64,000 nt of DNA from a virus: IMG/VR virus record IMGVR_UViG_3300040801_004532, positions 1 to 64,000 of that record. One strand, given 5' to 3'. The notes beneath the pieces were generated by a model. It did not search any database and was not told where the DNA came from. It worked only from the letters and a program-made list of their open reading frames with translations. The position numbers and the translations under genes are program-made. This document shows, piece by piece, positions 29,061 through 58,353 of this stretch (the first letter of the stretch is position 1; the number at the start of each line of letters is the position of its first letter).

Positions 29061-29876
29061 TTATTTGTTCTGAGAATTGGGAATGGGATCTATATTAAGA
29101 GGCAATGAATCCACAAATCGGAATACTTTCCACCCTAGTTTTCCAAGGATCGAATCTCTAATTGCATCTTTCTCGGGGTCGTGCCAGTAGGAACCGTCAT
29201 ATTCAAATGCAAGTTTTTCCTCTGGCACGGCCACATCTATACAGAAATCACCCAAAGGATATTCAAGAATTGCTGTCGGATATTTTTCTTTTACCATTTC
29301 ATAGAGTTGTAATTGGGGGGTTGAGATGCGGGGGGCGGCTAACCAACCTTTCTGACCATTAATAATTTGTTGCTTCCTTCTTTTTTTGGCTTTATCTTTT
29401 CCCATTATTTCTTCATAGGTTTTTCCTTTTAGTAAAGAAGGTCGCCCTTTTAAAGCATCTGAAACTTTTTTGGATATTTCTGGATCTTTTAATGGATTTA
29501 ATTCACCCAAAAAAAATTTTTTCCCATGATCAGTTTTCATAATATTTTTTTTACCAAATTTTCTTTTTGTAGTCTTTTCTGACTTTCCTAAAAGTTCTTC
29601 ACTAGAATATCCTATACCTCCATAGAGTTGGTTACATGTTTCTATAATTTGTGTTTCACATTTTTTCCTTCGTTTACTTCTTTTTTCAGAATCTTTTTTT
29701 GTCATTGTAGGAAGGTTGGGAAATTCTTCTCTAACATCACGAATTGTTTTTTTATGGAGTTTTAAGTGTTGCCAATGCAAAAATTGCATTTCTTTTCCGC
29801 AATAGGGACATACTACATATTTAACATCTACTACTAGGTGTATCCTATTTCTTTCTTTTCTTGTTAGCCGTTTCAT
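29061..29876 (-). CDS. Zinc-finger plus DUF559/Vsr-like endonuclease-domain protein (homing-endonuclease-like)
   Basis: CPYCGKEM…H..H.KLH at the N-terminus. The C-terminus (GDFCIDVAVPEEKLAFEYDGSYWH…GWKVFRF) matches the DUF559 PD-(D/E)xK signature. Paralogue of 14803..15444. Confidence 0.5.
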   Translation of the reverse strand: MKRLTRKERNRIHLVVDVKYVVCPYCGKEMQFLHWQHLKLHKKTIRDVREEFPNLPTMTKKDSEKRSKRRKKCETQIIETCNQLYGGIGYSSEELLGKSEKTTKRKFGKKNIMKTDHGKKFFLGELNPLKDPEISKKVSDALKGRPSLLKGKTYEEIMGKDKAKKRRKQQIINGQKGWLAAPRISTPQLQLYEMVKEKYPTAILEYPLGDFCIDVAVPEEKLAFEYDGSYWHDPEKDAIRDSILGKLGWKVFRFVDSLPLNIDPIPNSQNK

Positions 29877-39198: not shown

Positions 39199-40701
39199 TT
39201 AAAGCATTCCTCCCATTCCTGTGAATGTCATTAATTCACAATGACCATCACTATTCTTTTTATCACTTGAATCTCTATTACTTTTTCTTGTTGCACTAAT
39301 AAATTTAAACCTTTCAAAATCAACCTTAAAATCAATCGCTACATTACTTTGTCCTGATCTGTTTTTTCCAATCTTGCCATGAACAAGATTATCATCAACT
39401 GGATCCTTAGCTAAAAGACCAACAAAATCAGCATGTTCTACTTTTTTGATTGATTCTGAAATTTGATCAACTCCAAGCTCTTTAGAGTCATTAATTTTAT
39501 ATGCAGAACGACCCAATTGAGTTGCAGTTATAATTGGTATATTATATTGAACAGCAAGGGTTTTTAATGCTAATGCAATATGCCCAAGCTCTAATCTATA
39601 TATATCATATCTAGTATCTGTTTTTAATAAATCTAGATAATCAACATAAAGTCCTGCAATTTTAGAATTTGGATATTGATCAATGGTATCATCAATAACA
39701 CCCATAAGATCCAATGGACTCATTGAAGTGGGTGGGAAATATTTCATTATGATTGTTGCGCTATTTTCATCAAGACGATCAAAAATCCTCTTTTTAATAT
39801 CTACCTTTTGACTAATCTCTGTTAGAAATTGTTTAATTGTTACATCAAATAATGGTTGATATGTTCTCATTAAAGATTCTTCAATTGTATTTTCCATAGT
39901 TACATAAATGAAAACATTATGAACCTCGCCTTTAACTGGTTGCTTTGCTTCTGGGATTGCTCTCATAGCGGTCGATGTTGCAGAAAATATAATTGAGTTA
40001 TTTAAAATTGTTGATTTCCCTGCTCCAGACCCCCCACCCCAAACATACAACCTTGAAGGTTCATACCCCCCAAATAAAATTTCATCAAGAAGAGGAAATC
40101 CAGTTGGGGTTTTATTTACCCTGTCATATTTCCTAAGGATCATTTCTTTAACACTATCAAAATCATCTTTATATAAATCGAGTGATGCTGCAGCCTCTAT
40201 TGCCATCGCTCTGTTATTTTCCATCATATTTGAATAAAGCTGTTTTATTGTAACCTCATAGTCTTCAATCAAATCATCAATTGAGTCAAATGATCCATCT
40301 TTAATTGACTCCAAAACCTTATCTAGATCATCATAATTTTTAAACAGAGAATTAATTTTCTTTCTTAATCTAACCTGTTTTACAATGTCCTGAAATACTG
40401 ATTCTTTTAATTCCTCGTGAATTTTTGAATCTAGAAAATCTTTGTGTTGGTTAAATTTTTCACTAAAAGCAATACTGTCTAGAACATTCTCGATAGTCTT
40501 ATCCTCAAGAAGAAGTTGGCAAATTGTCTTGAGACAATCTAATTTTGATTTTATTGTGACAGGAATTTCAAATGCCTGTTTGGATTCACTAAATAGAAGA
40601 ATATCTAATAAATCTCGATATAAAGCTTTTGTCTTTTTGATTCTTGAATTTTTATTAAGAATTAATGTAAAACAAGAATTTAGAAACGACTCTGTTATCA
40701 T
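39199..40701 (-). CDS. Replicative DNA helicase (DnaB / gp41 family)
   Basis: Walker A GGGSGAGKST, Walker B YVDYLDLL (DnaB IDYLQLM), H3-like IITATQLGRS. Confidence 0.55.
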   Translation of the reverse strand: MITESFLNSCFTLILNKNSRIKKTKALYRDLLDILLFSESKQAFEIPVTIKSKLDCLKTICQLLLEDKTIENVLDSIAFSEKFNQHKDFLDSKIHEELKESVFQDIVKQVRLRKKINSLFKNYDDLDKVLESIKDGSFDSIDDLIEDYEVTIKQLYSNMMENNRAMAIEAAASLDLYKDDFDSVKEMILRKYDRVNKTPTGFPLLDEILFGGYEPSRLYVWGGGSGAGKSTILNNSIIFSATSTAMRAIPEAKQPVKGEVHNVFIYVTMENTIEESLMRTYQPLFDVTIKQFLTEISQKVDIKKRIFDRLDENSATIIMKYFPPTSMSPLDLMGVIDDTIDQYPNSKIAGLYVDYLDLLKTDTRYDIYRLELGHIALALKTLAVQYNIPIITATQLGRSAYKINDSKELGVDQISESIKKVEHADFVGLLAKDPVDDNLVHGKIGKNRSGQSNVAIDFKVDFERFKFISATRKSNRDSSDKKNSDGHCELMTFTGMGGML

Positions 40702-40709: not shown

Positions 40710-41093
40710 TTACCTCTTCTTTTTGATTTTTTGTTCCAATGTCGAATTAAACATTTCCATGATTTTCTTATCTACTTCCTCAGCAATCTTTTCTGACATA
40801 ATATCTATTATAGATTTTCCCTCTATATAAATATCACTAGCAGAGATAGTATTTGAAAATGCCATAGAATCATCCATAGAAAAAGAAACAAACCCCTCAT
40901 CTTTTTCTCCTGTGGCATTACTAATCCAATCAACCTTCCCTTTTCCTTGGCATTTTCTACAAAAAGGCGTGATGATATAATTAGAATTTTGATCTACATC
41001 TTTTTCTGTTCCTTTTCCGCCACAATGGTCACATATAAGTTCGCCTTCATTGATAACAACCTTTTGACCTTTTGCATTAACCAAATCTTCCAT
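40710..41093 (-). CDS. CxxCxGxG zinc-finger protein
   Basis: CDHCGGKG…CRKCQGKGKVDWI. Confidence 0.4.
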   Translation of the reverse strand: MEDLVNAKGQKVVINEGELICDHCGGKGTEKDVDQNSNYIITPFCRKCQGKGKVDWISNATGEKDEGFVSFSMDDSMAFSNTISASDIYIEGKSIIDIMSEKIAEEVDKKIMEMFNSTLEQKIKKKR

Positions 41094-41348
41094 TTATTCC
41101 GCCTTTTTTCCCACTGCTTTTTCAATCCAATCAATTTTTCCTGACCCAAGACAATGGTGACAGACCAACATAGTATTGTTTGGTACCTTTGGAAATTTTG
41201 ATGTTTTAATAAATTTTGCCCTCCTCACCAAACCACTACCACCACACGTTCTACAAAACTCCTGCCCTTCTTCAAGGGCAATGTAAGTTTTGTTATAAGC
41301 ATTATATCTTTTATTCATGGAAAGGCAATACCCTCGATTTATCATCAA
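41094..41348 (-). CDS. CxxCxGxG zinc-finger protein (paralogue)
   Basis: CRTCGGSG…CHHCLGSGKIDWIEKAVG. Confidence 0.4.
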   Translation of the reverse strand: MMINRGYCLSMNKRYNAYNKTYIALEEGQEFCRTCGGSGLVRRAKFIKTSKFPKVPNNTMLVCHHCLGSGKIDWIEKAVGKKAE

Positions 41349-42708
41349 GATCTACAAACTCATCTTTGGATAAATATTTCTTTACCAAATAATGACAATA
41401 ATCCTCATCTAAACTAGCTAAGACATTAAGGGATCTTGGGATACTATGAGCTTTAACTTTTTGTTTTCTTGTTAATTTTCCTTGGTTTAAAATCCTTGTA
41501 GCTTCTAAACATTCTCTATAAAATTCTTCTTCGTCACCAGATTCATAAATTGGATAAACACGTTCTGCAAATTCTCTCATACCTTGTTGAATATCTGTAT
41601 ATAAATCCAATGTATATAATATTGAATAGACCTTAACATCTTCCCAAAATGTATTTCTACTTGGATCATAAATCCCATCAACATTAATCTTTGAAAACCC
41701 CCACTTATCGGATAGACGATCAAAAATTCTTTGTGTCATATCATGAACAGATAGATCCTTTAAAAATCTCAGATCAAGTCTATCGCTTTTGATACTCATT
41801 TTTCTAATGTAGCCATATTCATCTGCAACATGCATAAACCTTGCGTGCATTACCTGCTTATAAATACCCGATGAATCATAAGTAATGTTCAAATCAATTC
41901 CATGTTTCTTTTTAATAACGACACTAAACAATTCATAAAACAATACATCCCTGAAATTTGCACCACCAAGAATATGAAAATTTAAATGTTTGAATCCATG
42001 TCTTATGGCTTCATTTACAAGCGGAACAATAGGAAGGATATAAATCACACATGGGATTGACATATCACTAGACATATTCGCAACAATTCCGCCTGTACCA
42101 TGATACTTAAAATGTCTGAACATATCATGGTCTCTTAGGAGCTTCGTATAAATTTCCCAAAGTTTGGGGGTACGAAAATGATGAACATATATAATCTTAT
42201 CACGAACATGATCAGGAAGAGATTTGGCTTTTTCATATGACTCAAGATTTAATTTATAAACATCATCAAAATTATGAAAAATCTTGCAACCAGGTCCCGG
42301 AGGAATATCAAGAATAAATGCTTTATCATAAACATCTGCATACTCAACAAGCCACTCATAATATAATTTATAAAGCAAATCAGATTCTGCTCTTGTTAAT
42401 CTTCCAATTGAAATCTGAAAGCCACCACTATCTGCAATCAAATTACAATTATCAAAGAGTCCCCACTCTCGACACTTCCTATATAAATCACCTTCTCGTT
42501 GTTTATATTTATCAAATTTTTTCTTTCCGCCAAAATCCTGACCAAATGAATGAAGAAACCCGGCAGTTGTTTTAGAAAGAAAGTTTGATATGTCTTCTCT
42601 CGTAAAATTATTGTTAAATCTCCCTCTTCGTCCTTCGATAAAATTTTCAAGAATAGTTGCAAGCGTCTCAAATCCTGCTAGAACATATCCACTTCTTTTA
42701 ACATCCAT
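41311..42708 (-). CDS. dpdA: tRNA-guanine-transglycosylase-family protein (DpdA-like DNA 7-deazaguanine transglycosylase)
   Basis: DSGGFQ motif (IADSGGFQISIG). HILGGANFRDV region like TGT LHLxGVG. Confidence 0.5.
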   Translation of the reverse strand: MDVKRSGYVLAGFETLATILENFIEGRRGRFNNNFTREDISNFLSKTTAGFLHSFGQDFGGKKKFDKYKQREGDLYRKCREWGLFDNCNLIADSGGFQISIGRLTRAESDLLYKLYYEWLVEYADVYDKAFILDIPPGPGCKIFHNFDDVYKLNLESYEKAKSLPDHVRDKIIYVHHFRTPKLWEIYTKLLRDHDMFRHFKYHGTGGIVANMSSDMSIPCVIYILPIVPLVNEAIRHGFKHLNFHILGGANFRDVLFYELFSVVIKKKHGIDLNITYDSSGIYKQVMHARFMHVADEYGYIRKMSIKSDRLDLRFLKDLSVHDMTQRIFDRLSDKWGFSKINVDGIYDPSRNTFWEDVKVYSILYTLDLYTDIQQGMREFAERVYPIYESGDEEEFYRECLEATRILNQGKLTRKQKVKAHSIPRSLNVLASLDEDYCHYLVKKYLSKDEFVDLDDKSRVLPFHE

Positions 42709-43140
42709 TCAAATACCCCCCACCCTCCCCAATTCTGTCATTCCCTTTGAGTATGGACTTGTGGCAGCACCACTAGTTCCCGAAATCCCAGCAAATCCAA
42801 TTGATCCAGATACTCCCGATGGTCCAACACATCCACTTGTTCCAGATGTACCCATATAACCAGAAGACCCATTATAATCTGGAGGTTCAACTCCAGTAGC
42901 TTGTTCAATCCAATCTAATTTTCTTTTTCCCCAACATTTAGGGCAAATTGAAATATTCCTACATATTGATCCATCCTTCCTCGCTAATTCAATTGCTCCA
43001 CGCCCACCACAAATGGGGCACACAATTTCTCCCAAATCTTCATCTAGTTCAATTTCGCTTATTCCAGCACCATTGAAAGGGGTGCGTTTAGAAATAACTT
43101 CACCATTTAGATATTTTTTAAAATTATCTAATATTCCCAT
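42709..43140 (-). CDS. Zinc-finger (CxxCxGxG) protein with a collagen-like C-terminus
   Basis: CPICGGRG…CPKCWGKRKLDWIEQATG followed by GSSGYMGTSGTSG…. Confidence 0.45.
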   Translation of the reverse strand: MGILDNFKKYLNGEVISKRTPFNGAGISEIELDEDLGEIVCPICGGRGAIELARKDGSICRNISICPKCWGKRKLDWIEQATGVEPPDYNGSSGYMGTSGTSGCVGPSGVSGSIGFAGISGTSGAATSPYSKGMTELGRVGGI

Positions 43141-43151
43141 TTATTCACCAC

Positions 43152-43676
43152 CTACAATTTTTCTATTACAATACTACCACCAGTGGACGAATCAAATTCC
43201 ATTGCACATTTTAACGCCAACTCAATTCGTTTTACTGGTTCCATATCATTGTTTAGTTCTTGTATTGCTTTCAAAGATCCCAAAGCATATGTACCGCCAG
43301 ATCCAATAGCAGTAAATTCATCCACGGTACTAATATGAAAATCAACCAAAATTTCATATAGCTGCTTTTTGTAACCAATAATAAGATTGGATACCCACGC
43401 TTCAGTTTGGTCGTCTGTAATAGCAAGACATCCCTTTTCTCGACAATGATTTCTCAGATAATCAGGGAAGTCAAGTATATCTTCTGGAGGGTCAAAAAAT
43501 TTAGAATGTAAAATTTGACACCCCCTTGCGCTGCCAACTGCACCCAGCAAATAATTTCCAACTCTAAATATTTTTTGGGCTTTAATGGGACGAATGTCAC
43601 CGCCTTCAGACGATCCTCTGGTATCTGCTCCTATATAAACATTTCCCTTATGTTTTATTCCTACAACACATGACAT
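43152..43676 (-). CDS. HslV-like Ntn-hydrolase peptidase (proteasome beta-like)
   Basis: MSCVVGIKHKGNVYIGADTRGS…AIGSGGTYALGSLKA aligns along E. coli HslV. Ser replaces the Thr1 nucleophile. Confidence 0.6.
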   Translation of the reverse strand: MSCVVGIKHKGNVYIGADTRGSSEGGDIRPIKAQKIFRVGNYLLGAVGSARGCQILHSKFFDPPEDILDFPDYLRNHCREKGCLAITDDQTEAWVSNLIIGYKKQLYEILVDFHISTVDEFTAIGSGGTYALGSLKAIQELNNDMEPVKRIELALKCAMEFDSSTGGSIVIEKL

Positions 43677-43677
43677 T

Positions 43678-44478
43678 TTATTCCCCCTTTAATTTCATAT
43701 CATCTCTCATCCTAAGACATTTTGCTAGATCAAATGAGTAGTCGTATATATGTAACCCTTTACTTGAAGCAAATATTTCTCCATCTTCAATCCCAATCTC
43801 TTCTGTAATATATTCCTTTAATAATTGAATACCAGCAAGATTTGCAGGGAATCCTCCCCATAGGTCCCACGATCTGAAATATGGATAAAAGTGAAGTTTT
43901 CCATCTTGAATCCTTGTATCAATGTGTCTTAAACATGGAGGATCTTGTAAAAGCATATCAGTTGGATGTGCAACTTGTAAAACCATTTGATTATTTCTGT
44001 AACCTTTATTTTTATATGTCCAAATTAACAGTTCAATTTGATTTAAATGCCAATGACCGGTAGAATAAATAATGCCAAGATCAATTAATTCCTCAATTTC
44101 CTCTATGAGAATATTTGGCCAATGACCCTCCTTATATAAATGTAAGGGATAATTTATTGGATACGCAGTTAACCTTTGACCATATGTATATGATTCCCCA
44201 TCTTTTAATGCTCCAGTCATCAAATACGGAAGGTATTCATCTAGATAATCATCAGCTACAGGGTTTGGAATATTATGGTGTGCTTCTATCTGAGGTAAAA
44301 GAGGTTTTGACCAGGGATGTTTAATATGAACATTTACCCAATCAAATTCTAATCTTTTTTGCCCAGCATATGATCCCCGGTCAATTTTAAATACTGAACC
44401 TTCTTCAAGGATTCTAAAAAGAGTTTGAAACCAAGCATCTCCTAAATCTCTGGCTTCAATCGTTTGAACATTAAGCAT
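43678..44478 (-). CDS. Thymidylate-synthase-family enzyme (ThyA or dNMP hydroxymethylase)
   Basis: PC…DGKL…RSWDLWGGFPANLAGIQLL…G…HIY aligns with the ThyA catalytic region. Asn is present at the N177-equivalent position. Confidence 0.55.
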   Translation of the reverse strand: MLNVQTIEARDLGDAWFQTLFRILEEGSVFKIDRGSYAGQKRLEFDWVNVHIKHPWSKPLLPQIEAHHNIPNPVADDYLDEYLPYLMTGALKDGESYTYGQRLTAYPINYPLHLYKEGHWPNILIEEIEELIDLGIIYSTGHWHLNQIELLIWTYKNKGYRNNQMVLQVAHPTDMLLQDPPCLRHIDTRIQDGKLHFYPYFRSWDLWGGFPANLAGIQLLKEYITEEIGIEDGEIFASSKGLHIYDYSFDLAKCLRMRDDMKLKGE

Positions 44479-44490
44479 TATCTATTCCTT

Positions 44491-44817
44491 TCATGATATA
44501 ATTTTAGAATCTTCTTTTGGGGCTTCAAGGGTAAATTCATCAAGTGATTCTCGAGTTTTCTCATCTATAAGAAAACCATAAATTTCGTCAACCTTTAAAA
44601 CCTTCAAGAGGGATTTCCCAATTACCACATCCATTCCACCACGAGGATGCATAACAAGAATATCTCCTTTATTTATACCTTCAACTTTTAATCCAACAGA
44701 TAGAACCTTGCCATATGCTTGTGGATCCTGAACAGTTTCCGGAAGGATTATTCCTCCTGACGATTTACTTCTCTTCAGAACTTGTACTATAACTTTGTCT
44801 TCGATTGCTTCGATCAT
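44491..44817 (-). CDS. groES: Co-chaperonin GroES (Cpn10) homologue
   Basis: IEAIEDKVIVQ…KSSGGIILPE…GKVLSVG pattern. Confidence 0.55.
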   Translation of the reverse strand: MIEAIEDKVIVQVLKRSKSSGGIILPETVQDPQAYGKVLSVGLKVEGINKGDILVMHPRGGMDVVIGKSLLKVLKVDEIYGFLIDEKTRESLDEFTLEAPKEDSKIIS

Positions 44818-45124
44818 TTTGTTTAGCTCCCTTCTTTTGCTTCTTTTTTTTACGAATGATTTTTTCTTTCAACTTCTCCAACTTTTCTTCTTCTTTTTGT
44901 ATTGCTCTTATAGATTGGACTTTTTTTCTTCTTTTCCTATCGCTAGGTTTCTCATAATACATCTTTTCTCTAAACTCTTTGGCAATACCACTCTTTGAAA
45001 ATTTCTTACGAAAGCGTTTTAAAAGTTCTTCATCACTCTCGTCTTTTCTACGAACTACACATATTCCTGTGTGTTCATCAGGATAATAATGTTTATGATA
45101 AGTCATAGCTTGAATATTTGCCAC
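44765..45124 (-). CDS. rpsU: Ribosomal protein bS21 homologue (phage-encoded)
   Basis: VVRR…ELLKRFRKKFSKSGIAKEFREKMYYEKPSDRKRRKK aligns with bacterial S21. Confidence 0.55.
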   Translation of the reverse strand: MANIQAMTYHKHYYPDEHTGICVVRRKDESDEELLKRFRKKFSKSGIAKEFREKMYYEKPSDRKRRKKVQSIRAIQKEEEKLEKLKEKIIRKKKKQKKGAKQNDRSNRRQSYSTSSEEK

Positions 45125-45133
45125 CTCCCTTCA

Positions 45134-45805
45134 TTATACAAATCCATAAATTATATGGTCTCTCGATGAAAAGCTGAAACCATATTTCTCGCAAATATCA
45201 AAAACAGCTGCAGAATTTTTAATGAGATCTACCCTGGTTGTTCCCTCAGGCATAACCCAAACTCTATGGTTCCAACTAAGGTTTTTATAATTAGCGGAAA
45301 TATTGGCCAAAAACTTTTCAATCAACGGACTATCATCATATACAACTTTTATATAAACTTCTGGAAAACTTTCTAGAAGTTTAACATTTTGTAGTGCTGA
45401 TGATAGATCACTATCATTAAAGATTTTTGGCGAATAAACATATCTAACATGTTTATCAGGAGAAACCTCTTGAATTAACTGGAACAATTTATACCCATTT
45501 GATTCAACATTTGCAATTGGATAGTCCAGCTCATTAAGTAATAAAGCGGCTTCATCAAAATGTTTTGGAACCGTTGGTTCTCCACCTGTAATCAAAAGTC
45601 CTGCATTTGTTCTATAAATTGTATCTTGAATATCTGAAAGAAGATGCGGAGCCTCTGCTGAGATTCTCATTTTTACAGAGGTATCACACCAAGGACATTT
45701 CAGATTACAAGTCTTAAATCTGAGAATGATCATTGGTCGCCCGCTATCAATTCCTTCGCCTTGCCATGAAATAAAATTTTCGATTAATTTAACACTTTTA
45801 CTCAT
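45134..45805 (-). CDS. queE: 7-carboxy-7-deazaguanine synthase QueE (radical SAM)
   Basis: WQGEG…CNLKCPWCDT…ITGGEP… Aligns with E. coli QueE and has the same length (223 aa). Confidence 0.65.
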   Translation of the reverse strand: MSKSVKLIENFISWQGEGIDSGRPMIILRFKTCNLKCPWCDTSVKMRISAEAPHLLSDIQDTIYRTNAGLLITGGEPTVPKHFDEAALLLNELDYPIANVESNGYKLFQLIQEVSPDKHVRYVYSPKIFNDSDLSSALQNVKLLESFPEVYIKVVYDDSPLIEKFLANISANYKNLSWNHRVWVMPEGTTRVDLIKNSAAVFDICEKYGFSFSSRDHIIYGFV

Positions 45806-45840: not shown

Positions 45841-48800
45841 TTATATAGTTAATAGTTCCGACTTTTCTCTTATATCAGTCAGCGGCTTAAGCATTAGCTC
45901 ATGCCTATCCATAAATGAAAATCTCAATGCTGCGTTTAAATCAGGGACAAAAAATGCTGGTAGCCTCCTTTCTTCATCGGGAATAGCAATTACCTCAAGT
46001 TTATTACCACGCCCAATAAATTTATCATATTTAGCTCTTATTTTTTCTCTTTCTTTATCATCTTGTATTTTATCAAAATCAATTCCTCTAACCCAGAACA
46101 TGTATGCCTTATTTCCAGGTCTATGAATATCATACATTATATTATTCCAGGCTTCCATAGCTCTAACGCCTTGTGGAATTGTTTTATAATCGCTTAGTTC
46201 TTTTCCCCAAGTTACAGGTCGAGCAATAGTTTTATCGCCTTGAATAATAAGATCTTTAAATTCCTTTTCTTTTCTTGACACATATTTTATAACTTTTGAT
46301 AATTTAAATTTTTCATCTTTCAGGATCAGCTCTGAAAGCTCTGATAAAAATTCTTTTGATTTACTTGGATAATCTGATCTTTTAATTTCAACACCCATAT
46401 AATTAATCTTATCAACTTCTTTTCCTTCGTTATTTATAACACGAATTGCATATCTCTTTTTAGCCAAAAACAATCCTCGTGAAATAACAAGCTCATTTTT
46501 TAATTCAAGGCGATTAAATTCTAAATTAACATTGTGTCGTTTAACCATTTCAACAATTCGATGTTTATTTAAAAATTCTTCAACCTCTTTACACCATCCT
46601 TGAATTTTCTCGACTGATAGATCTTTATTTTTAAACCCTCCAAAATAACAGAAAATTGAATCTGTATCGCCTGTTATTATATATTCGTTATTTCTTTCGG
46701 GCATTTCATCTGAGTACATTTCTTTTTTGGTTAAGGGATTGGGGTGCTCGTATTTTTCATTCTTGTCTATGTGCCTCATAAAAGCATCACCTTCAATAAT
46801 TGATGTTTTTAATGCCTCTTGTCCGGATAATGTTACGGCCCCTGCTACATCAATATCAAAAAATCTAAATGCCTTATTAGCTACAACTCCATATAATGTA
46901 TTTGCAAGGACCTTATAAACTAACTGTCTTGTATAAAAGAAATTTTCGGAATCTTTATCTTTTTCTTCAATCGCTTGAAACATCTCTTTTTTATATCTTT
47001 TTCTTGTTTTCATTAACATATCAACGACCTCACCAAAAACAGAAAACTCTTTTTCGTGTGGTAAAAAGAAACATCCGTTGATTGTATAAACTAAATTATT
47101 TTCTTTAACTTTTTTCATTAACTGGTCAGGAGTAATAACCATCTCTTTCTTTTCAAACAATGGATCATATACAACCTCAATTTTCTCCGGAAGATTTTCT
47201 GGATGATATGCTAATTCATAACCAAGATGTGAGTCTTTAGTTTTCATTACATAACTATTCACGCCAATGTTATATGTAATCATAATACTTGGGTATAGAG
47301 ATGCAAAGTCAAAGTCTGTAATCCAATCATATGCGCCTGGAATTGGACTAAAAACAAATGCCCCCGGATATTTTCCTTTTTCAGTATGAGGGTCAGAATT
47401 TTTTGAACCGAAACCTTTATTTCTAAGATATGATACCATCAACGAATCAATTTGACCAAATGATGATACAGAATCAAATGAAGTATTACAAATTATTCTT
47501 AACTCATTAAGCAGGTTAATATGAGCTAATTTATCATCAAGTTGCTCAAGGAGATCTGTATCCCGAATGTTATATTCAATTGTCTTATTAAACATTTTCC
47601 AATACATTTCATTGAAAGGTAAGGGCAGATCTATTTTTGTAATCCCCAACTCATGTTGTGCAATAAAACCAAGTTTATAATTTTCCATTTTTGTAAATGT
47701 AAATGTCCTATATAAAAAGTCCTGATCAATTGCTACACAACCAGGAATATGGCAAACATATTTTGAACCGTCAACATAAAACTCGCCAAATCTATTGAAC
47801 ATTGATTGCTTTAATCCAATCTTTGGCATTCTGTTATATATATATTCAAGGTCGAATGAAATACAGTTCCATCCTGCAATAAAATCAGGATCTTCACTTT
47901 TAAAATCTTTGGAAAATTCCCTCAACAGTTCCTTTTCTGTATTAAAAATTTTAAAATCAACCCCATCAATTTTTTCAATCGGTTCTGTTTTATTGTCAAC
48001 TACATAATGTGTTTTGGTTTTATTGAATATTGTTGTAAGCATATTAATTGGAAATTTGGCCTCTAGAGGACGGGGGAAAACTCGCTCATCCCCTGTATCT
48101 ACCTCAATATCGAAAAACATAATATTTGATTTAACTTTTTTAGCTTCGCCTTTACTGTAATGATAATAATCCATTGCATGTTTCGCTGTTATTCTGACAT
48201 CACCTTCGTATGTTATATCAGGATCTAAATTATATCTATCTCGGTATTTCACCTTAATTTGATTTAAATGATCATAAGGAACAATCTTCTTTCCTTGATG
48301 TCCCTTTTTTATTTGATAACAAACATAATCGTCATTCTCCGTATGATATATTTTTCTATTGTCCTTATCACGAAATATATAAAGGATTTGACTTGTTTTG
48401 TTAAGAAACTGAACATCAATCAATCTATAATCATCTGAATAAAATTGCTTTGGAATCTTATATCTAAATATTCCAGCCCCCATAGATTCAATATCATGAT
48501 GCGAAACCTCTATGTCTTTTCCACTCAACATTGTAGAAATTTGCCCCATCGCTTCTTCAAATTTTGGTTCCCAAACTCCCAAATTTCTATTGACAAACGA
48601 AGGATGAACTATTATGACAGTTTTAAACCCATTCCATTCTGTAACCTTGCCATGAATTTTTGTTATGCCTGATTTTCCCATTCCAAATGCAGACATAGGA
48701 CTTCCGCCCATAATAACAACAAGTTTTGGATTACAAATCTTTGTTATATTTATACAATTGATTTTGCAGTTTTTAATAACATCATCATCTGGGTTGCCGG

Positions 48801-49080
48801 TTGTTCCATCATCATTTAAGGTTTGACAAAGGACAACATTTGTAAGAAGGTAATTGCATTTATTTAAACCAAATTTATTAAAGTATTTTCTAAATAATTT
48901 CCCAGCCTTCCCGACTAATGGATTACCTTTTTTAACTTCTTCTTTACCAGGATTTTCTGCGATAAAAACTACATCTACTTTTGATAAATCATCTTCACAA
49001 TTTGTTTCAAGAATACACGAAGGGAATTCTAAAAGTTTACACTCGGCACAATTTGCAAAAGACTTTTTTATTGAAAACAA
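45841..49080 (-). CDS. Family B DNA polymerase with an N-terminal UDG-like (family 4) domain
   Basis: N-terminus VVFIAENPG…GNPLVGKAGKLF (UDG motif). FFDIEV (Exo I), DFASLYPSIM (motif A), K..ANTLYG (B), GDTDS (C). Confidence 0.85.
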   Translation of the reverse strand: MFSIKKSFANCAECKLLEFPSCILETNCEDDLSKVDVVFIAENPGKEEVKKGNPLVGKAGKLFRKYFNKFGLNKCNYLLTNVVLCQTLNDDGTTGNPDDDVIKNCKINCINITKICNPKLVVIMGGSPMSAFGMGKSGITKIHGKVTEWNGFKTVIIVHPSFVNRNLGVWEPKFEEAMGQISTMLSGKDIEVSHHDIESMGAGIFRYKIPKQFYSDDYRLIDVQFLNKTSQILYIFRDKDNRKIYHTENDDYVCYQIKKGHQGKKIVPYDHLNQIKVKYRDRYNLDPDITYEGDVRITAKHAMDYYHYSKGEAKKVKSNIMFFDIEVDTGDERVFPRPLEAKFPINMLTTIFNKTKTHYVVDNKTEPIEKIDGVDFKIFNTEKELLREFSKDFKSEDPDFIAGWNCISFDLEYIYNRMPKIGLKQSMFNRFGEFYVDGSKYVCHIPGCVAIDQDFLYRTFTFTKMENYKLGFIAQHELGITKIDLPLPFNEMYWKMFNKTIEYNIRDTDLLEQLDDKLAHINLLNELRIICNTSFDSVSSFGQIDSLMVSYLRNKGFGSKNSDPHTEKGKYPGAFVFSPIPGAYDWITDFDFASLYPSIMITYNIGVNSYVMKTKDSHLGYELAYHPENLPEKIEVVYDPLFEKKEMVITPDQLMKKVKENNLVYTINGCFFLPHEKEFSVFGEVVDMLMKTRKRYKKEMFQAIEEKDKDSENFFYTRQLVYKVLANTLYGVVANKAFRFFDIDVAGAVTLSGQEALKTSIIEGDAFMRHIDKNEKYEHPNPLTKKEMYSDEMPERNNEYIITGDTDSIFCYFGGFKNKDLSVEKIQGWCKEVEEFLNKHRIVEMVKRHNVNLEFNRLELKNELVISRGLFLAKKRYAIRVINNEGKEVDKINYMGVEIKRSDYPSKSKEFLSELSELILKDEKFKLSKVIKYVSRKEKEFKDLIIQGDKTIARPVTWGKELSDYKTIPQGVRAMEAWNNIMYDIHRPGNKAYMFWVRGIDFDKIQDDKEREKIRAKYDKFIGRGNKLEVIAIPDEERRLPAFFVPDLNAALRFSFMDRHELMLKPLTDIREKSELLTI

Positions 49081-49221
49081 ATAAATGCCTCCTCAGTTTA
49101 GTTTTGATTTTGTTCCGATTAAAAAAATAATTAACCATTTAAAAAAACATTCATCTATATATATTAATAAGTGAAAGTAGGTTGGGCGCCTAATATTTAT
49201 TACCGAAGAAAGGAGAACAGC

Positions 49222-50043
49222 ATGACCGAACATGAAACGACAGCAATTACCAAGCAAGACGTGGAAAAGGTTGTGTCAGTGATTTCGATCAATGACGCAG
49301 AAAAAATCCTCGGAATCAAAAACGAGCCTCCGTACGACATCAAAAAGCTCCTCCATGAGTATCACATCGGTTTTGAAGTTCTCATGGAAAACCGCGAGTT
49401 CAAAAAGCTTCGCCCTTTGACGGATGCCAAGAATATCATTCTTCGGCACCTCATCGAGAACCAAGTCGAAGAGAACGGCCGGTTCGACATGGAAGGGGTT
49501 ATTCCGTTTGAAGATGCTTGCACGTCTTGCCACGGCACCGGGGAATTATATAAATTCTTCCGGCGAGTCGTCACCCTCGATTGCAAATTCTGCGAGGGCG
49601 AGGGTGAAGTTACTTTAGAGTGCCGGGCCTGCGGCGGATCCGGTCGCTATATACGAGAGTACGGCGACCTGAAGATCGATGTGGCTTGCAAAAAATGCGA
49701 CAAAGATCCCGAAACCGGCGACCCCCTTGGGGTTGTGACTTACAAATGCCGGCGGTGTCGGGGAAAAGGAACATTCCGGAAAACCGTGATTGACAGCAAG
49801 ATCAAATCCACGACCCATTGTAAGGTTTGCAAGGGCCGGGGGTTCATCGTTCCGGATGATCGGTTCCCTCCCCGAAGGGGTCAAACGATTCAAATTGCCA
49901 ACCCGGTCATCAAGGAAAGCGACCTTGAATCAATCGGAAGCGTCATCAAGGAAAGCAAGCCGGAAGCGGCCGAAATCTCCATCGAGGAAGACAACCTGGA
50001 ATCACTCGAAAGCGCCATCAAGGATTCCCCCGCAAGCGAATAA
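49222..50043 (+). CDS. DnaJ-type CxxCxGxG zinc-finger repeat protein
   Basis: Six CxxC.G.G repeats. aaggag RBS. GC-richer than its neighbours. Confidence 0.5.
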   Translation: MTEHETTAITKQDVEKVVSVISINDAEKILGIKNEPPYDIKKLLHEYHIGFEVLMENREFKKLRPLTDAKNIILRHLIENQVEENGRFDMEGVIPFEDACTSCHGTGELYKFFRRVVTLDCKFCEGEGEVTLECRACGGSGRYIREYGDLKIDVACKKCDKDPETGDPLGVVTYKCRRCRGKGTFRKTVIDSKIKSTTHCKVCKGRGFIVPDDRFPPRRGQTIQIANPVIKESDLESIGSVIKESKPEAAEISIEEDNLESLESAIKDSPASE

Positions 50044-50636: not shown

Positions 50637-50909
50637 TTAATAATCCTTTAAAAATCTCAATAAAATTCCATCACGCAAACCTTTATTACCACAATTATGA
50701 TTAACTAAAAAAGTATCGTCTGATAAATCAACTTTGATCTTTATATTGTATATATCTAATTTGTTAGGTTCACTATTATCTTCTCCGGCTCCAATCTGAC
50801 TTCTTAAAAAATTTTCAACAATATTTGGGACTGCCTCTTTTTTCATATTTGTTGAAATATCAAAACTATCTTTGTTAATATCATATTTCAACTCAACAAA
50901 CAAATTCAT
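50637..50909 (-). CDS. hypothetical protein
   Basis: 90 aa. Confidence 0.3.
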   Translation of the reverse strand: MNLFVELKYDINKDSFDISTNMKKEAVPNIVENFLRSQIGAGEDNSEPNKLDIYNIKIKVDLSDDTFLVNHNCGNKGLRDGILLRFLKDY

Positions 50910-51904
50910 TAAATTGCCCCTTTCATTTCATTACAAATCACATCATAGAATTTATTCATTTGTTCCTCACATAACAGTTTTGGAACATCAACCTTTGGCA
51001 CCCAATCAACATTTGCATTTAGAATATAATCTATTTTTCTCATTAGTTCTCCGGAGGAGTTATACAAGTATTCATCAGGCAGTAGTTCTGGATATGCTAA
51101 ATCTCTCCTAGCCAAAGGGATACAATTATTCATTACAGCATCAACAATTTGATAACCAAATGTATCCTCATGAGCTGTAATCAATAATATTTTTGACGAT
51201 CTCAAATTATAAAAATAATCATACCATGTATATGAAATAGGTCTTTTAATTTCACAGAAAGTATCCTCAACCAATTTCTCAAGAGATTCATCAATCTTCT
51301 GTGGGTTTGATCTTGAGGCTGACATAATTTCAATTGTTTTTTCTATTTCAGGAAAATCAAATTCTAGTGGGGGAAATGGTAAATAAGATACCATTATATT
51401 CCTCCAGTGTGCATCATTTCCAAAGACACTATGGCCACCAACTCTTAGTTTATTTTTATGATAACAACTTCCAACAAAAATCTTATCAAACATTCTACAT
51501 ATGCTTGATTCAATTGGAAATTTATCAGACCTAACTTTTCCATAATAATCTAAAACATTCAATGATGTTGCATGACAAAAAGCATACATTTTCTTTGGGC
51601 GTTTGTGAAATAAAACATGACCAAAAATTCCTGGAAAGCTAATATCCGCCCAAAATAAAATATCATCATCCTTCAAATCTAAATTCATATACTCGTTGAT
51701 TTGAGCTGTTTCAAGTTCAATGGCTTGATTTATTGGAGAGAACATATCTAATCCGCTTCGTCTATGAACCATCTCCTTAATTTTATCTCTCCCAAGAGTT
51801 AGTACCTCAAACCCTCGTTTTTCAAATTCTTCTGGCAGTTTCCAGAACCACCATTCAGAATATCTTAAAGCTGATGGAAATTGTGGTACAAAGATTATTC
51901 TCAC
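50909..51904 (-). CDS. Glycosyltransferase (GT-B, group-1-like)
   Basis: C-terminal ITAHEDTFGYQIVDAVMNNCIPLA matches the E.FG..EA...G.P motif. Confidence 0.45.
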   Translation of the reverse strand: MRIIFVPQFPSALRYSEWWFWKLPEEFEKRGFEVLTLGRDKIKEMVHRRSGLDMFSPINQAIELETAQINEYMNLDLKDDDILFWADISFPGIFGHVLFHKRPKKMYAFCHATSLNVLDYYGKVRSDKFPIESSICRMFDKIFVGSCYHKNKLRVGGHSVFGNDAHWRNIMVSYLPFPPLEFDFPEIEKTIEIMSASRSNPQKIDESLEKLVEDTFCEIKRPISYTWYDYFYNLRSSKILLITAHEDTFGYQIVDAVMNNCIPLARRDLAYPELLPDEYLYNSSGELMRKIDYILNANVDWVPKVDVPKLLCEEQMNKFYDVICNEMKGAI

Positions 51905-53841: not shown

Positions 53842-53918
53842 CGGGGCGTGGCGCAGCCTGGTAGCGCGCCTGCTTTGGGAGCAGGAAGCCGGAGGTTCAA
53901 ATCCTCTCGCCCCGACCA
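53842..53918 (+). tRNA. tRNA-Pro (anticodon TGG)
   Basis: Cloverleaf folded by hand: acceptor cggggcg/cgccccg, anticodon loop tttggga, T-loop ttcaaat, CCA encoded. Confidence 0.8.
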
Positions 53919-53957
53919 CCCAATTTTAATTTTAAAAAACATAAAGGTCGAATAGTT

Positions 53958-54203
53958 ATGGTGAGGGTCATCCATAGGAATTGCAACAAACCAGCTTTTT
54001 ATTTTAAAAGCCGATTGGATATTGGGGATATTATATATGCCTCAAATATAATTTTCCTGGATGGATCAACTCCAGAACCGGACACCCCTATGATTTGTGG
54101 TTCATGCAACCAAATGATTTTATCAGGCGAATTAGAACAAGAAGGTTGGACCGACTGGTTTATGGTCGAAGAATTTCACACATTTGAAAACAAGAAAGGA
54201 TGA
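53958..54203 (+). CDS. hypothetical protein
   Basis: 81 aa. Confidence 0.3.
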
Positions 54204-54207
54204 GAAA

Positions 54208-54474
54208 ATGTCGTTGTTTGCAAAGAAGAAAATGACCCATGCTGAAATCGTTGCTCCATTAAAAACCATGGCTGAAACTCTATCAAGCTATATAAAAGAT
54301 CAAGCAGAAACCATTGGGGAATTGAATGTAAAAAAGAGAGAGATCGACAATCAGATTGAATTTTCAAATGAAGAAATTGAAAAATCAAACCATACAGTTG
54401 AGCAGATTAAGAAAATGGTTAACCTTCCCAAAATCAAGAAAATGCCGGCTGATTCGGTTCCTTCGGATGAATAA
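54208..54474 (+). CDS. hypothetical coiled-coil protein
   Basis: aaggatgag RBS. The ORF track starts at 54184. Confidence 0.35.
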   Translation: MSLFAKKKMTHAEIVAPLKTMAETLSSYIKDQAETIGELNVKKREIDNQIEFSNEEIEKSNHTVEQIKKMVNLPKIKKMPADSVPSDE

Positions 54475-54557
54475 CAATATGCCTGCGTGGCGATTAAATT
54501 CTTATATTCGAACCCTAAATTATTTTAGAACAAAAAAATAAAAGGGGTTCGACTATA

Positions 54558-55328
54558 ATGATTTGTGAATATTGTAAAAATAAACACGATGGATCATATG
54601 GATCGGGGAGATTTTGTTCTTCAAAATGTGCCAGGGGGTTTTCTACATCAAAGAAAAGAAAAGACATTAACAAAAAAGTGTCGGAAACTCTTAAAGGATA
54701 TAAAACAATTCCTGGCGGAAAAGTTAAATTATGCGATTATGGTTGTTGTAAAGAAGCAAAATTTCAATTGAAAAACAAAAAATGGTGTTGCTCAGAAAGC
54801 CATAATAAATGCTCAGCTGTTAGAAAGAAAAATTCTAAAGGTTTGACAAAATCGCATAAAAATGGGCGTCCTGCTTTTCCAGAAGGAGCTTATTTAAAGG
54901 GGCATGAGTCATTCAAAAAAAATCTTAAAGAAAAATATAAAAAGTTAAATTTTATTGATAAACCTATAGCAGAAAAACGAAAAATTATATTAAAGGATCA
55001 AAACAATAAATGTGCCATTTGTAATATTGAACAAGAATGGAATGATAAACCTTTAATTTTCCATCTTGATCATATAGATGGCAACAGAAAAAATTGGAGT
55101 AGAGATAATCTAAGATTTATCTGTCCCAACTGTCATAGCCAAACAGAAACATATTGTAGGGGAGGTAATAAGAACATATCAAATAAGCAGCTTAAAAAAT
55201 TACTAATAGAAACAAACTTTAATTTTACAAAAACTTTAGAATTAGCAAACTTATTTCCTGGTGGTTATAACTGGAACCGTGTTAAAAAAATAGCAAGTAA
55301 AATGTGCCAGGGTGATGGAATTTGGTAG
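54558..55328 (+). CDS. HNH homing endonuclease
   Basis: CAICN…HLDHIDGNRKNWSRDNLRFICPNCH. N-terminal zinc finger. The 3' end overlaps tRNA-Leu. Confidence 0.55.
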   Translation: MICEYCKNKHDGSYGSGRFCSSKCARGFSTSKKRKDINKKVSETLKGYKTIPGGKVKLCDYGCCKEAKFQLKNKKWCCSESHNKCSAVRKKNSKGLTKSHKNGRPAFPEGAYLKGHESFKKNLKEKYKKLNFIDKPIAEKRKIILKDQNNKCAICNIEQEWNDKPLIFHLDHIDGNRKNWSRDNLRFICPNCHSQTETYCRGGNKNISNKQLKKLLIETNFNFTKTLELANLFPGGYNWNRVKKIASKMCQGDGIW

Positions 55329-55392
55329 ACATGTATGTTTTAGAAGCATATGCCGTAATGGCGTGGGAGTTCAAGTCTCCCTCCTGGCACCA
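55306..55392 (+). tRNA. tRNA-Leu (anticodon TAG), type II
   Basis: Acceptor gccaggg/tcctggc, anticodon loop tttagaa, long variable arm, T-loop ttcaagt, CCA encoded. Confidence 0.75.
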
Positions 55393-55398
55393 AATCAA

Positions 55399-55872
55399 AT
55401 GAAAGTGAAAACAAAAATGAGCGATCATTTCCTTGAAGCGAGAATTCCATGTTATAAATGCCTTGTTATTTCAGCATGTAAAGAATTTAGTTGTCTTGAT
55501 GAATACCAAAAGGAAGCATTGAAAAATAATTATAGACAAATATGCCTAATGATTCCACAACCTGATTCACAAAATAAAAACTATAAGAAAAGTCTTTTAG
55601 AATGTTGGGCGAATTTAGGACATAGAATTTCTTCAAGTGTACAAAATAGTGAATCAGGCGATGTCAAGGAAGGAGATAGTGTTAAAATAAATCCTTCTTT
55701 ATCTTTTCTTATAAATGATCTATCTGCATTAACACAATGGATTATAAACTCCTCTAGTTGGAGAGAATCAGAATTCTACGAATTTGATCGTTTTGAAATA
55801 TCAAGGCGATTGGAAATTCTATTAAGAATTGTAAATTCAAGCCCGAGTAGCTCAGCTGGCCAGAGCGACTGA
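55399..55872 (+). CDS. hypothetical protein (start uncertain)
   Basis: The ORF track starts at 55312 inside the tRNA. The first Met after the tRNA is at 55399. The 3' end overlaps tRNA-Thr. Confidence 0.3.
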   Translation: MKVKTKMSDHFLEARIPCYKCLVISACKEFSCLDEYQKEALKNNYRQICLMIPQPDSQNKNYKKSLLECWANLGHRISSSVQNSESGDVKEGDSVKINPSLSFLINDLSALTQWIINSSSWRESEFYEFDRFEISRRLEILLRIVNSSPSSSAGQSD

Positions 55873-55917
55873 TTTGTAATCAGTAAGTCGGGGGTTCGAC
55901 TCCCTCCTCGGGCTCCA
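55841..55917 (+). tRNA. tRNA-Thr (anticodon TGT)
   Basis: Acceptor gcccgag/ctcgggc, D-stem gctc/gagc, anticodon loop tttgtaa, CCA encoded. Confidence 0.8.
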
Positions 55918-55938
55918 AAAAAAAGAAAGGATTGAATT

Positions 55939-56106
55939 ATGAATCCAGATGGGTATCATTTGGCATCAACTATATTCCTTCTGGTAAATGGGATTTGGTG
56001 GGGTAAAAATACTCCAATAAATCTTTTAATAAAAACTATATTCTGGAGTCTTGGTATATGGGGGGTAATTATTTGCCTTATTGATTTTGGATTGCTAACT
56101 CCTTAA
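55939..56106 (+). CDS. small membrane protein
   Basis: 55 aa with two hydrophobic helices. Confidence 0.25.
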   Translation: MNPDGYHLASTIFLLVNGIWWGKNTPINLLIKTIFWSLGIWGVIICLIDFGLLTP

Positions 56107-56116
56107 TTTAGATAAA

Positions 56117-56193
56117 GCCCCCGTAGCTCAGCGGAATAGAGCATCTGACTTCTAATCAGAGGGTCGCAGGTTCGAATCCTGCCGGGGGTACCA
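56117..56193 (+). tRNA. tRNA-Arg (anticodon TCT)
   Basis: Acceptor gcccccg/cgggggt, anticodon stem tctga/tcaga with loop cttctaa, T-loop ttcgaat. Confidence 0.8.
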
Positions 56194-56206
56194 CCAAAAC
56201 AAGGAA

Positions 56207-56509
56207 TTGCTAATGCTTGGAATGAGAGAAGAAATTTCAGAAATGATAGAAAATATCACATGTATAATCATAGGGCCACTTATTGTATTTATAGTTTTAG
56301 CAATAACCTCTATTGCTTTTATATTTTATAAAAATCCTTGTAACAAATGTATATTAAAAGTAAGGTGCTCAGAAGTATGTCATCAATCTAAAAAGTGGGA
56401 TTCAGCTCATGACATTTTTAACGACGCTAAAGAAATGCCAATATTGGCGGCAGCGGGTGCCTGTTATATTTTAGCAGTTGGAATAGCATTATATAATCTA
56501 CTCGTATAA
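56207..56509 (+). CDS. small membrane protein with a Cys motif (paralogue of 56761..57063)
   Basis: TM helix followed by PCNKCILKVRCSEVC. Confidence 0.35.
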   Translation: MLMLGMREEISEMIENITCIIIGPLIVFIVLAITSIAFIFYKNPCNKCILKVRCSEVCHQSKKWDSAHDIFNDAKEMPILAAAGACYILAVGIALYNLLV

Positions 56510-56540
56510 TTTGGTTAACCTGAAACAAGGCAGGAATTAA

Positions 56541-56798
56541 ATGGGAATTGAAAATCTTGAAGAGTTCAGAATAATTAAAGAAATTATCAGAAGGGACGGG
56601 GTCGGGATTCCTGATAGAAATGGATGGAAACCAAAAAGAGGTATGATAGTTGAGTTAAAAGACGGAAGACATGAAGTCTTTCGAACTACAGTTAAATCGT
56701 CTCTTGAGGAAACTATTATTCCACTCCTACCGCAAATCGAAAGAATAACATTCATTCTAGATGATGAAGAATATGAATTGGCTATATGTGATTGGTGA
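56541..56798 (+). CDS. hypothetical protein
   Basis: 85 aa. Confidence 0.35.
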   Translation: MGIENLEEFRIIKEIIRRDGVGIPDRNGWKPKRGMIVELKDGRHEVFRTTVKSSLEETIIPLLPQIERITFILDDEEYELAICDW

Positions 56799-57063
56799 AA
56801 ACGCTGCTTATGTTTATACACAAATTATATGGTTGCTTGTACGACTATGGGTATATATAACAGTAAAAGATCCATGTAAAAATTGTTTAATTAAATCATG
56901 CTGTACAGAAAAATGTGAAGAAAAAATTCAAATATTAAATTTCATATATCCTGAAGAAAAAGAAGGCGATGCAAAATTTATCGGGGTGCTTTGTCTATTT
57001 GCATTGGTCGTTCCTTCTTTTCTTTTGATATACTTTACAATTATGATAATTGCAGACCTGTAG
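56761..57063 (+). CDS. small membrane protein with a Cys motif (paralogue)
   Basis: DPCKNCLIKSCCTEKC followed by a C-terminal TM helix. Confidence 0.35.
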   Translation: MMKNMNWLYVIGENAAYVYTQIIWLLVRLWVYITVKDPCKNCLIKSCCTEKCEEKIQILNFIYPEEKEGDAKFIGVLCLFALVVPSFLLIYFTIMIIADL

Positions 57064-57685: not shown

Positions 57686-57691
57686 AACAAT

Positions 57692-58346: not shown

Positions 58347-58353
58347 ATTAAAT

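Follow-up and report, generated by a model that had tools for sequence, protein, structure and literature searches.

Does a jumbo phage that encodes a distant relative of the guanine transglycosylase DpdA near a QueE-like enzyme replace guanine in its own DNA with a 7-deazaguanine base? This question is raised by a stretch of 64,000 nucleotides of viral DNA (positions 1 to 64,000 of IMG/VR record IMGVR_UViG_3300040801_004532; hereafter, the window), which is part of a 248-kb JGI metagenome contig. Since the window encodes a T4-like major capsid protein, a portal protein, a prohead protease, tail fibres, a DnaB helicase, a family-B DNA polymerase and 11 tRNAs, it is assigned to a jumbo phage. 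Its minus strand carries the gene of a DpdA-like guanine transglycosylase (41311..42708, 465 amino acids, ATG start) and, 2.4 kb away, that of a QueE-like radical S-adenosylmethionine (SAM) enzyme, a putative 7-carboxy-7-deazaguanine (CDG) synthase (45134..45805, 223 amino acids). A preliminary description of this DNA had recognized the two proteins and their separation, which hold, and had gone on to read the pair as an anti-restriction module of DNA modification. On balance, we consider it probable that the 465-residue protein represents a new, so far unclassified subfamily of the DpdA radiation that replaces guanine in phage DNA with a 7-deazaguanine base, while the QueE-like enzyme raises the supply of CDG, and the host or other phage genes provide CPH4 and maybe the QueC step. 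This reading is preferred because of the homology to the DNA-acting enzymes DpdA1, DpdA2 and bDpdA, the intact catalytic set, the linkage to QueE and sometimes QueC, and the invariant position beside a replicative helicase. Fold, homology, conservation of catalytic residues and gene linkage are direct results of the comparisons described below, whereas we infer that DNA is the substrate, which base is inserted, what the host contributes and that the system acts against restriction.

By fold, profile–profile comparison and catalytic residues, the 465-residue protein is a member of the tRNA-guanine transglycosylase (TGT)/DpdA superfamily. An N-terminal region of ~85 residues precedes a TIM barrel (~residues 86–320) of the TGT-type (beta/alpha)8 fold, followed by a helical C-terminal domain (~residues 320–445). 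The top Foldseek match in the PDB is the DpdA structure 7ui4 (bDpdA), and structural matches in BFVD include a 464-residue protein of Vibrio phage nt-1 (E 2e-8), taken as DpdA2 on its length and source, together with other long TGT-like proteins of jumbo phages. At the level of sequence, the protein has no match in Pfam or NCBIfam and nothing significant in a PDB sequence-profile search made with the protein and two family profiles, and PF01702 matches neither the window protein nor any of 99 family members. The sole direct match of a hidden Markov model (HMM) is phrog_887, annotated as queuine tRNA-ribosyltransferase (E 3.5e-5, residues 81–185). The preliminary description had set a failed HMM check beforehand as a refutation of the assignment, and the check does fail in Pfam, NCBIfam and PDB profiles. 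However, it is not diagnostic, because accepted DpdA1, DpdA2 and DpdA3 proteins fail as well: phiSM DpdA1, phiST DpdA3 and the whole nt-1 DpdA2 family likewise have no Pfam TGT match, and the DpdA2 family profile finds no TGT or DpdA in the PDB either.

Homology to DpdA is detectable only by HHalign and structure comparison. A shallow family alignment (A1, Neff 1.9) compared with single DpdA sequences gave nothing, and a diverse alignment (A2, Neff 7) was required, whose 99 sequences reach down to ~20% identity. Alignment A2 matches a 45-sequence alignment of DpdA2 (97.4%, E 1.2e-11, 256 columns, residues 6–289), a 32-sequence alignment of phiSM-type DpdA1 (94.5%, E 7.6e-8, 167 columns) and, over the barrel, a TGT domain-containing protein of the Vibrio jumbo phage GR7B (95.3%, E 2e-8). 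Comparisons with the single sequences of phiST DpdA3 (1.8%) and E. coli Tgt (24.6%, E 8e-4) are not significant. There is no significant match between DpdA2 and DpdA1 (1.7%), and both match A2; thus, in profile space the window family is placed between the two. Among 1.84 billion representative proteins, a profile search returned only 281 clusters of the DpdA-like family. At 90% identity the family counts more than 600 clusters and at 50% about 280, all from metagenomes and contigs of metagenome-assembled genomes (MAGs). No relative was found by tblastn and megablast among 50,697 GenBank phages, the sole match being Vibrio phage GR7B at E 0.9. Cross-searches between DpdA-like and DpdA2 family HMMs reached at most 27 bits, and the family is absent from the best 120 listed homologues of nt-1 DpdA2. 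Given the 281 clusters and the low scores to DpdA2, the DpdA-like proteins form a compact separate family rather than members of DpdA2.

The catalytic residues, whose conservation was counted over the 99 family members (down to ~20% identity), lie in a series of motifs on the minus strand. The DSGGFQ motif (residues 93–98, 42415..42432) holds the putative acid/base D93, which is invariant, and F97, the putative base-stacking residue; S94, G96 and Q98 reach at least 94%, and DSGGLQ of DpdA2 and DSGAFS of DpdA1 are the aligned counterparts. The FILD motif (42307..42318) contains F131 (98%) and the putative base-recognition aspartate D134 (99%), and aligns with FDE of DpdA2 and NLD of DpdA1. H177 (42178..42180), the histidine of the HF(R)TP strand, is His in 93% and Gln in 7% of the family, aligned with the His of DpdA1 (VYHYG) and the Gln of DpdA2 (QGN). 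The glycine-rich loop G206-G207 (42088..42093; 95% and 98% conserved), which putatively faces the 7-substituent of the base, is placed on the GGLAVGE loop of E. coli Tgt by a weak alignment. In the HILG motif (41965..41976), conservation is complete for H245 and L247 and 99% for G248, with HLLGVG in DpdA2, THxLGY in DpdA1 and HMLG in GR7B as counterparts. Finally, the TYDSS motif (41869..41883), aligned with SYDSTT of DpdA2 and S.DAS of GR7B, holds the invariant D278 as putative covalent nucleophile; N154 is also among the conserved positions. In bDpdA from S. Montevideo, the active site comprises Asp95 (acid/base), Phe99, Asp130, His181-Gly182, Gly206-Gly207, Leu236 and Asp256 (nucleophile), and its three aspartates do not vary among TGTs and DpdAs (PMC10164549). 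The conserved residues of the window family have the same order and spacing, an equivalence drawn from order and motif, by which D93 and F97 correspond to Asp95 and Phe99, and D278 to Asp256. The three active-site aspartates (100%, 99% and 100%) and the glycine-rich loop, thus, place the protein in the TGT superfamily.

A rival explanation is a tRNA-guanine transglycosylase for translational takeover, which would insert 7-deazaguanine into host or phage tRNAs while QueE boosts the queuosine precursor. This would fit a phage that encodes ribosomal protein bS21 and many tRNAs, but we regard it as improbable. It is the DNA-acting DpdA1 and DpdA2, and not E. coli Tgt, that give significant profile matches. 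Moreover, the zinc site of TGTs is missing, since the family has no conserved Cys/His cluster that could form the zinc-binding CxCxxC...H subdomain, and the cysteines that the window protein has are not conserved. GUN anticodons are absent from the 11 tRNAs of the window, queA, queG and queF were not found, and the most conserved neighbour of the transglycosylase gene is a replicative helicase.

The closest known systems share some features with the window family and differ in others. DpdA2 (Vibrio phage nt-1, YP_008125322, and also phage VH7D) is 464 residues long in nt-1, a precedent in overall length for the protein that the preliminary description called long with a divergent C-terminus. 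The alignment with DpdA2 covers the N-terminal region and the whole barrel, including DSGG.Q, F(L)D, H.LG and YDS(S/T), whereas the C-terminal ~170 residues do not align. The absence of the conserved histidine is a stated trait of DpdA2 (PMC6884629), which has Gln at the position of His177. Around nt-1 DpdA2 lie QueD, FolE, QueC and ArcS, whereas only QueE was found in the window. With at most 27 bits, His177 instead of Gln and unaligned C-terminal domains, the protein falls outside the DpdA2 subfamily. DpdA1 of the phiSM type (phrog_887), a subfamily that also holds the DpdA of Enterobacteria phage 9g, shares DSGG/DSGA, LD, the conserved His and H.LG, but is only about 240 residues long in phiSM-type members, without the N-terminal region and the C-terminal helical domain of the window protein. 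The phiSM gene, unlike that of the window, lies in a full FolE/QueD/QueE/QueC/QueF cluster. The host of phiSM is a flavobacterium (Cellulophaga), and Bacteroidetes are the predicted hosts of comparable bS21 phages (PMC9723584). S. Montevideo bDpdA has 11% identity to the window protein and no sequence-level match. As part of the Dpd restriction-modification system, this enzyme depends on DpdB, an ATPase (PMC10164549), whereas the window showed no DpdB/ParB-like gene; bDpdA resides in a bacterial defence island, whereas the window gene belongs to a phage replication block.

A further group consists of ~530-residue TGT-domain proteins of cultured jumbo phages, namely Vibrio vB_VcorM_GR7B/GR11A, P. 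putida vB_PpuM phages, Xanthomonas/Erwinia 227-kb phages, NCTB and Achromobacter Motura. The best structural matches of the window protein in BFVD include the Motura protein and proteins of ~530 residues that probably belong to this GR7B-type group. As here, these are long TGT-like proteins in phages of 195–260 kb, and the GR7B gene lies near replication genes. GR7B retains a stretch matching the C-terminal part of Pfam TGT (E 2e-5), which the window family does not have. No description of the DpdA-like family was found in the literature on DpdA in jumbo phages or metagenomes.

The second protein of the pair is accepted as a phage-type QueE homologue. Its match to phrog_2076 ('QueE-like radical SAM domain'; E 1.3e-31) spans the full length, the QueE structures 5tgs and 6nhl are the best sequence matches in the PDB, and it aligns end to end with the QueE of Cellulophaga phages phiSM and phiST, whose DNA carries 7-deazaguanines (PMC10516641); identity to these phage and cellular QueE proteins is 27–30%. 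The NCBIfam QueE models are the top matches, cover mainly the N-terminal half and remain below their cut-offs (best 55.9 bits vs 260; equivalog cut-offs 200–300), so that the word 'clear' applied to this QueE in the preliminary description was slightly overstated, although the homology itself stands. On the minus strand, the gene encodes the QGEG motif of QueE (Q15-G16-E17-G18, 45752..45763), followed by Arg29 (45719..45721) and by the CX3CX2C [4Fe-4S] motif CNLKCPWC with C33, C37 and C40 (45686..45709), after which comes DT. The QGEG residues and Arg29 align with 5tgs, 6nhl, phiSM and phiST. By motif position, Arg29 equates to Arg27 of B. multivorans QueE, which forms a salt bridge with the carboxylate of CPH4 (PMC5347944). 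The motifs common to the window protein and the phiSM and phiST enzymes are E, QGEG, Arg29, CX3CX2C-D(T/S), GG.P, E.NG, SPK, MP.G and R.H.

The linkage of both genes was followed through 25 IMG/VR loci, further ENA and Logan contigs and four MAG contigs (up to 255 kb), in which the DpdA-like protein ranges from 93% down to 37% identity. The conserved gene order is 331-residue protein, family-B polymerase (PolB), QueE-like, bS21, GroES, (ThyA-like), (HslV-like), DpdA-like, zinc-finger proteins and DnaB. A QueE-like gene lies near the DpdA-like gene in about 26 of 28 informative loci, and ThyA-like, HslV-like and bS21 are dispensable across loci while the pair persists. In the distant locus L200 (a member of ~21% identity), QueE-like is directly upstream of DpdA-like, and in the distant members L199 and L204/L205 the DnaB gene directly follows DpdA-like. 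Genuine QueC occurs in two lineages, L018 (PF06508, E 2e-58) and L023 (E 1.5e-12), and in the latter sits right after QueE-like. Could the two genes nevertheless be functionally uncoupled, their proximity being the frozen order of a conserved core block? The whole 12-kb block (PolB, QueE-like, bS21, GroES, ThyA-like, HslV-like, DpdA-like and DnaB) is syntenic, with clearly unrelated genes among its members, and L020 and L198 keep DpdA-like with no QueE-like gene nearby. However, we hold this to be improbable, as ThyA-like, HslV-like and bS21 come and go while the pair remains, the two genes are directly adjacent in L200, and both map to one biochemical pathway, which QueC joins in two lineages.

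A further rival is a different use of the fold, such as a DNA glycosylase or repair excision at the replication fork, another base exchange, or a Cap10-like (CBASS) conjugation of deazaguanine to protein, with a related but different substrate for the QueE-like enzyme. This explanation appears improbable: the full set for base exchange of the guanine type (D93, D134, H177, GG and D278) is conserved, and the QueE-like protein keeps QGEG, the arginine and all motifs common to the QueEs of phages with 7-deazaguanine DNA. In addition, QueC adjoins the QueE-like gene in L023 and is present in L018, and no CD-NTase or CBASS genes lie nearby. Nor is the pair a mobile anti-restriction cassette, since it belongs to the conserved replication block of a clade of jumbo phages. 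An apparent DpdA-like::DnaB fusion (P0210, 969 residues; L199:441-3350), which as a Rosetta-stone case would have counted strongly for a link, was rejected, because an in-frame stop separates two open reading frames (ORFs); either the gene was called wrongly or that phage recodes the stop codon. When GTDB genomes were scanned for cellular homologues and hosts, only four MAG contigs appeared, all with the phage replication block, and, therefore, L195, L197 and L198 are almost certainly mis-binned jumbo-phage DNA. Their MAG labels are Heimdallarchaeota, Thermoplasmatales and Woesearchaeota, the last being a 211-kb contig.

Several observations weigh against the proposed exchange of guanine in phage DNA by the DpdA-like and QueE-like proteins. 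Firstly, standard HMM libraries do not recognize the 465-residue protein. Secondly, pathway genes are scarce. Phage reference proteins were compared by phmmer with all window ORFs of at least 40 residues, and ~50 window ORFs were scanned with Pfam; folE, queD, queC and queF were not found in the window, in agreement with the preliminary description as to the first three. FolE and QueD were not found in ±10 kb of about 30 related loci either, among which QueC occurs in two only, and QueF, DpdL and DpdM were not found in the window or any fetched flank. In an IMG/VR scan for QueC on clade contigs, only the contig of L018 itself appeared, and no clade contig was among the best 80 of more than 579 loci in a FolE scan. 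Thirdly, DpdA with QueE only is not among the described gene sets (PMC6884629). The literature takes DpdA itself as the signature, normally with FolE, QueD, QueE and QueC, or alone (PMC6884629, PMC10516641). The claim in the preliminary description that the TGT/QueE pair is the hallmark must, therefore, be given up, while modification of the DNA, its chemistry and an anti-restriction role are kept as proposals. Fourthly, some phages encode DpdA with no detectable modification, for example Mycobacterium phage Orion (PMC6884629), and the share of G modified by DpdA2 and bDpdA is only about 0.1% (PMC10516641). Fifthly, L020 and L198 retain the transglycosylase with no QueE-like gene nearby, and bS21 and GroES share the block, so that synteny alone is no proof of a DNA role. 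On the other side stands the finding that nt-1 DpdA2 alone inserts dPreQ0 into plasmid DNA (PMC10516641, Table 3).

Restriction sites provide a further point against the proposed exchange. Palindrome counts were compared with maximal-order Markov expectations in the window and in pooled clade loci (L001-L023, L033, L195, L197 and L198). GAATTC, GATATC, ATCGAT and GTATAC are under-represented, with observed-to-expected ratios (O/E) of 0.2–0.3 in the window and 0.55–0.64 in the pooled loci. In the window, GAATTC occurs 5 times against 22.5 expected, GATATC 6 against 19.9 and ATCGAT 3 against 15, while the pooled O/E is 0.60 for GAATTC and 0.64 for GATATC (z about -5). Such avoidance suggests continuing selection by type II restriction systems. 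The rarity of G-containing palindromes argues against a blanket protection of G or a complete replacement of guanine as in DpdA3.

What remains is a plausible DNA-modification system of a known general kind, whose steps may be outlined by analogy with bDpdA and TGT enzymes. Asp278 would attack C1' of a deoxyguanosine in phage DNA and displace guanine, with Asp93 as the likely general acid/base. The base would be sandwiched by Phe97 and Leu247, the Gly206-Gly207 loop would accommodate the 7-substituent, and the covalent intermediate would be resolved by a free 7-deazaguanine base. The co-conserved QueE homologue would make CDG from CPH4, and the inserted base would be preQ0 or a CDG-derived base. 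Since FolE, QueD and, in the window phage, QueC were not seen, the host, or genes elsewhere in the remaining 184 kb of the genome, would have to provide CPH4 and possibly the step from CDG to preQ0. Moreover, as the pair is a core part of the PolB ... DnaB block in a clade of uncultivated bS21 jumbo phages, the modification probably accompanies or follows replication.

A more specific and unlikely version would make the family a sixth, replisome-linked DpdA subfamily that, in a widespread clade, is always beside DnaB and works with QueE alone, raising the CDG pool and equipping nascent DNA with CDG, or with a base derived from CDG that is not preQ0, with flanking zinc-finger proteins that might replace the TGT zinc subdomain in trans. 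If true, this would supply the missing 'CDG insertase' for dCDG-containing viral DNA, an enzyme that the literature has been unable to name. Zinc-finger proteins could conceivably be partners of a transglycosylase with no zinc site of its own. In the window, a paralogous set of DnaJ-type CXXCXGXG zinc-finger proteins is encoded at 40710..41093, 41094..41348 and 42709..43140 on the minus strand and at 49171..50043 on the plus strand. These paralogues often end in '(K)(I/V/L)DWI', one has collagen-like GXY repeats, and they flank the DpdA-like gene in the window and most relatives.

DpdA is treated as the signature of viral 7-deazaguanine DNA, and the known subfamilies, bDpdA and DpdA1-4, all come from cultured or GenBank viruses. 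The present family is abundant and yet escapes Pfam, NCBIfam and BLAST searches against GenBank phages. Should it act on DNA, current annotation overlooks modified guanines throughout a clade of jumbo phages, and such guanines would affect the evasion of restriction and CRISPR as well as the nanopore or enzymatic handling of this DNA. The minimal QueE-only set and the fixed position at the side of the helicase give a testable handle on the inserted base, on replication coupling and on how bases of the CDG type come to be in DNA, and the profile similarity to both DpdA1 and DpdA2 is useful for reconstructing DpdA evolution. What is new here is an additional subfamily of DpdA whose minimal gene set is unusual and which is located in the replication core, the enzymology itself being expected.

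The remaining genes of the block are encoded on the minus strand. The conserved downstream partner of DpdA-like across the whole family is the DnaB-like replicative helicase (39199..40701; phrog_19, E 1e-47). Between the two, the conserved downstream neighbour in the window is a small DnaJ-type CXXCXGXG zinc-finger protein of 84 residues (41094..41348), whose ORF shares 38 nucleotides with the 3' end of the DpdA-like gene. Five same-strand genes separate DpdA-like from QueE-like. The first, a zinc-ribbon protein of 143 residues with collagen-like repeats (42709..43140), abuts the start of DpdA-like with its end. It is followed by an HslV/proteasome-beta-like N-terminal nucleophile (Ntn) hydrolase (43152..43676; phrog_1040, E 2e-24), which begins MSCVVG and has no HslU-like partner nearby. 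A role of this protein as an Ntn-type amidotransferase for the synthesis of G+ was rejected, as it matches proteasome/HslV models. The third is a ThyA-like protein (43678..44478), whose closest model is TIGR03283 (archaeal-type thymidylate synthase; E 2e-31, below its cut-off). It carries the PPCL Cys, which we take to be catalytic, and the FPAN Asn, presumably the uracil-specificity position and read here as a dUMP-type site; it is a probable thymidylate synthase. Its use as a pyrimidine hydroxymethylase in a second modification system was set aside, the gene being absent from many clade members. The last two are a GroES-like ORF (44491..44817), which overlaps bS21 by 53 nucleotides if called from its first possible start, and ribosomal protein bS21 (44765..45124; Pfam E 4e-12, TIGR00030 above its cut-off). 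This arrangement resembles that of the bS21-encoding jumbo phages described from freshwater lakes, which are reported to be abundant in freshwater and whose hosts are predicted to be Bacteroidetes (PMC9723584); that report makes no mention of QueE or deazaguanine.

Upstream of QueE-like, its conserved neighbour is a family-B DNA polymerase with an N-terminal uracil-DNA glycosylase (UDG)-like domain (45841..49080; phrog_262, E 4e-127). The orthologue in L033 contains PF03167 UDG and DNA_pol_B domains; it is 1529 residues long (L033:1040-5629, on a 241.7-kb ENA contig) and also shows a faint intein match. In L200, the QueE-like gene (L200:870-2033) is apparently split by an intein exactly at the radical-SAM motif (KCPW|C...HN|CDT), with a weak Pfam Intein_splicing match (E 5e-4). 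Further upstream lies the 331-residue protein (50909..51904), which precedes PolB in most clade relatives at 40–59% identity and has no Pfam, NCBIfam or PHROG matches.

Elsewhere in the window, a plus-strand tRNA array (53842..63455) holds the 11 genes Pro, Leu x3, Thr, Arg, Gln, Met x2 and Ser x2, among which lie small ORFs and an HNH endonuclease-like gene (54558..55328). A DUF559/restriction endonuclease-like protein (29061..29876, minus strand) adjoins the major capsid gene, and the plus strand encodes a calcineurin-like phosphoesterase (16393..17070) and a PP2C-like phosphatase (23788..24603). Finally, the region ~18000..22000, with plus-strand ORFs of unknown function, has a G+C content of 0.45 vs about 0.35 elsewhere and may have been acquired horizontally; its genes include those of an SPFH/Band-7 domain protein (17120..18886) and an RNase H-like protein (18896..19324).

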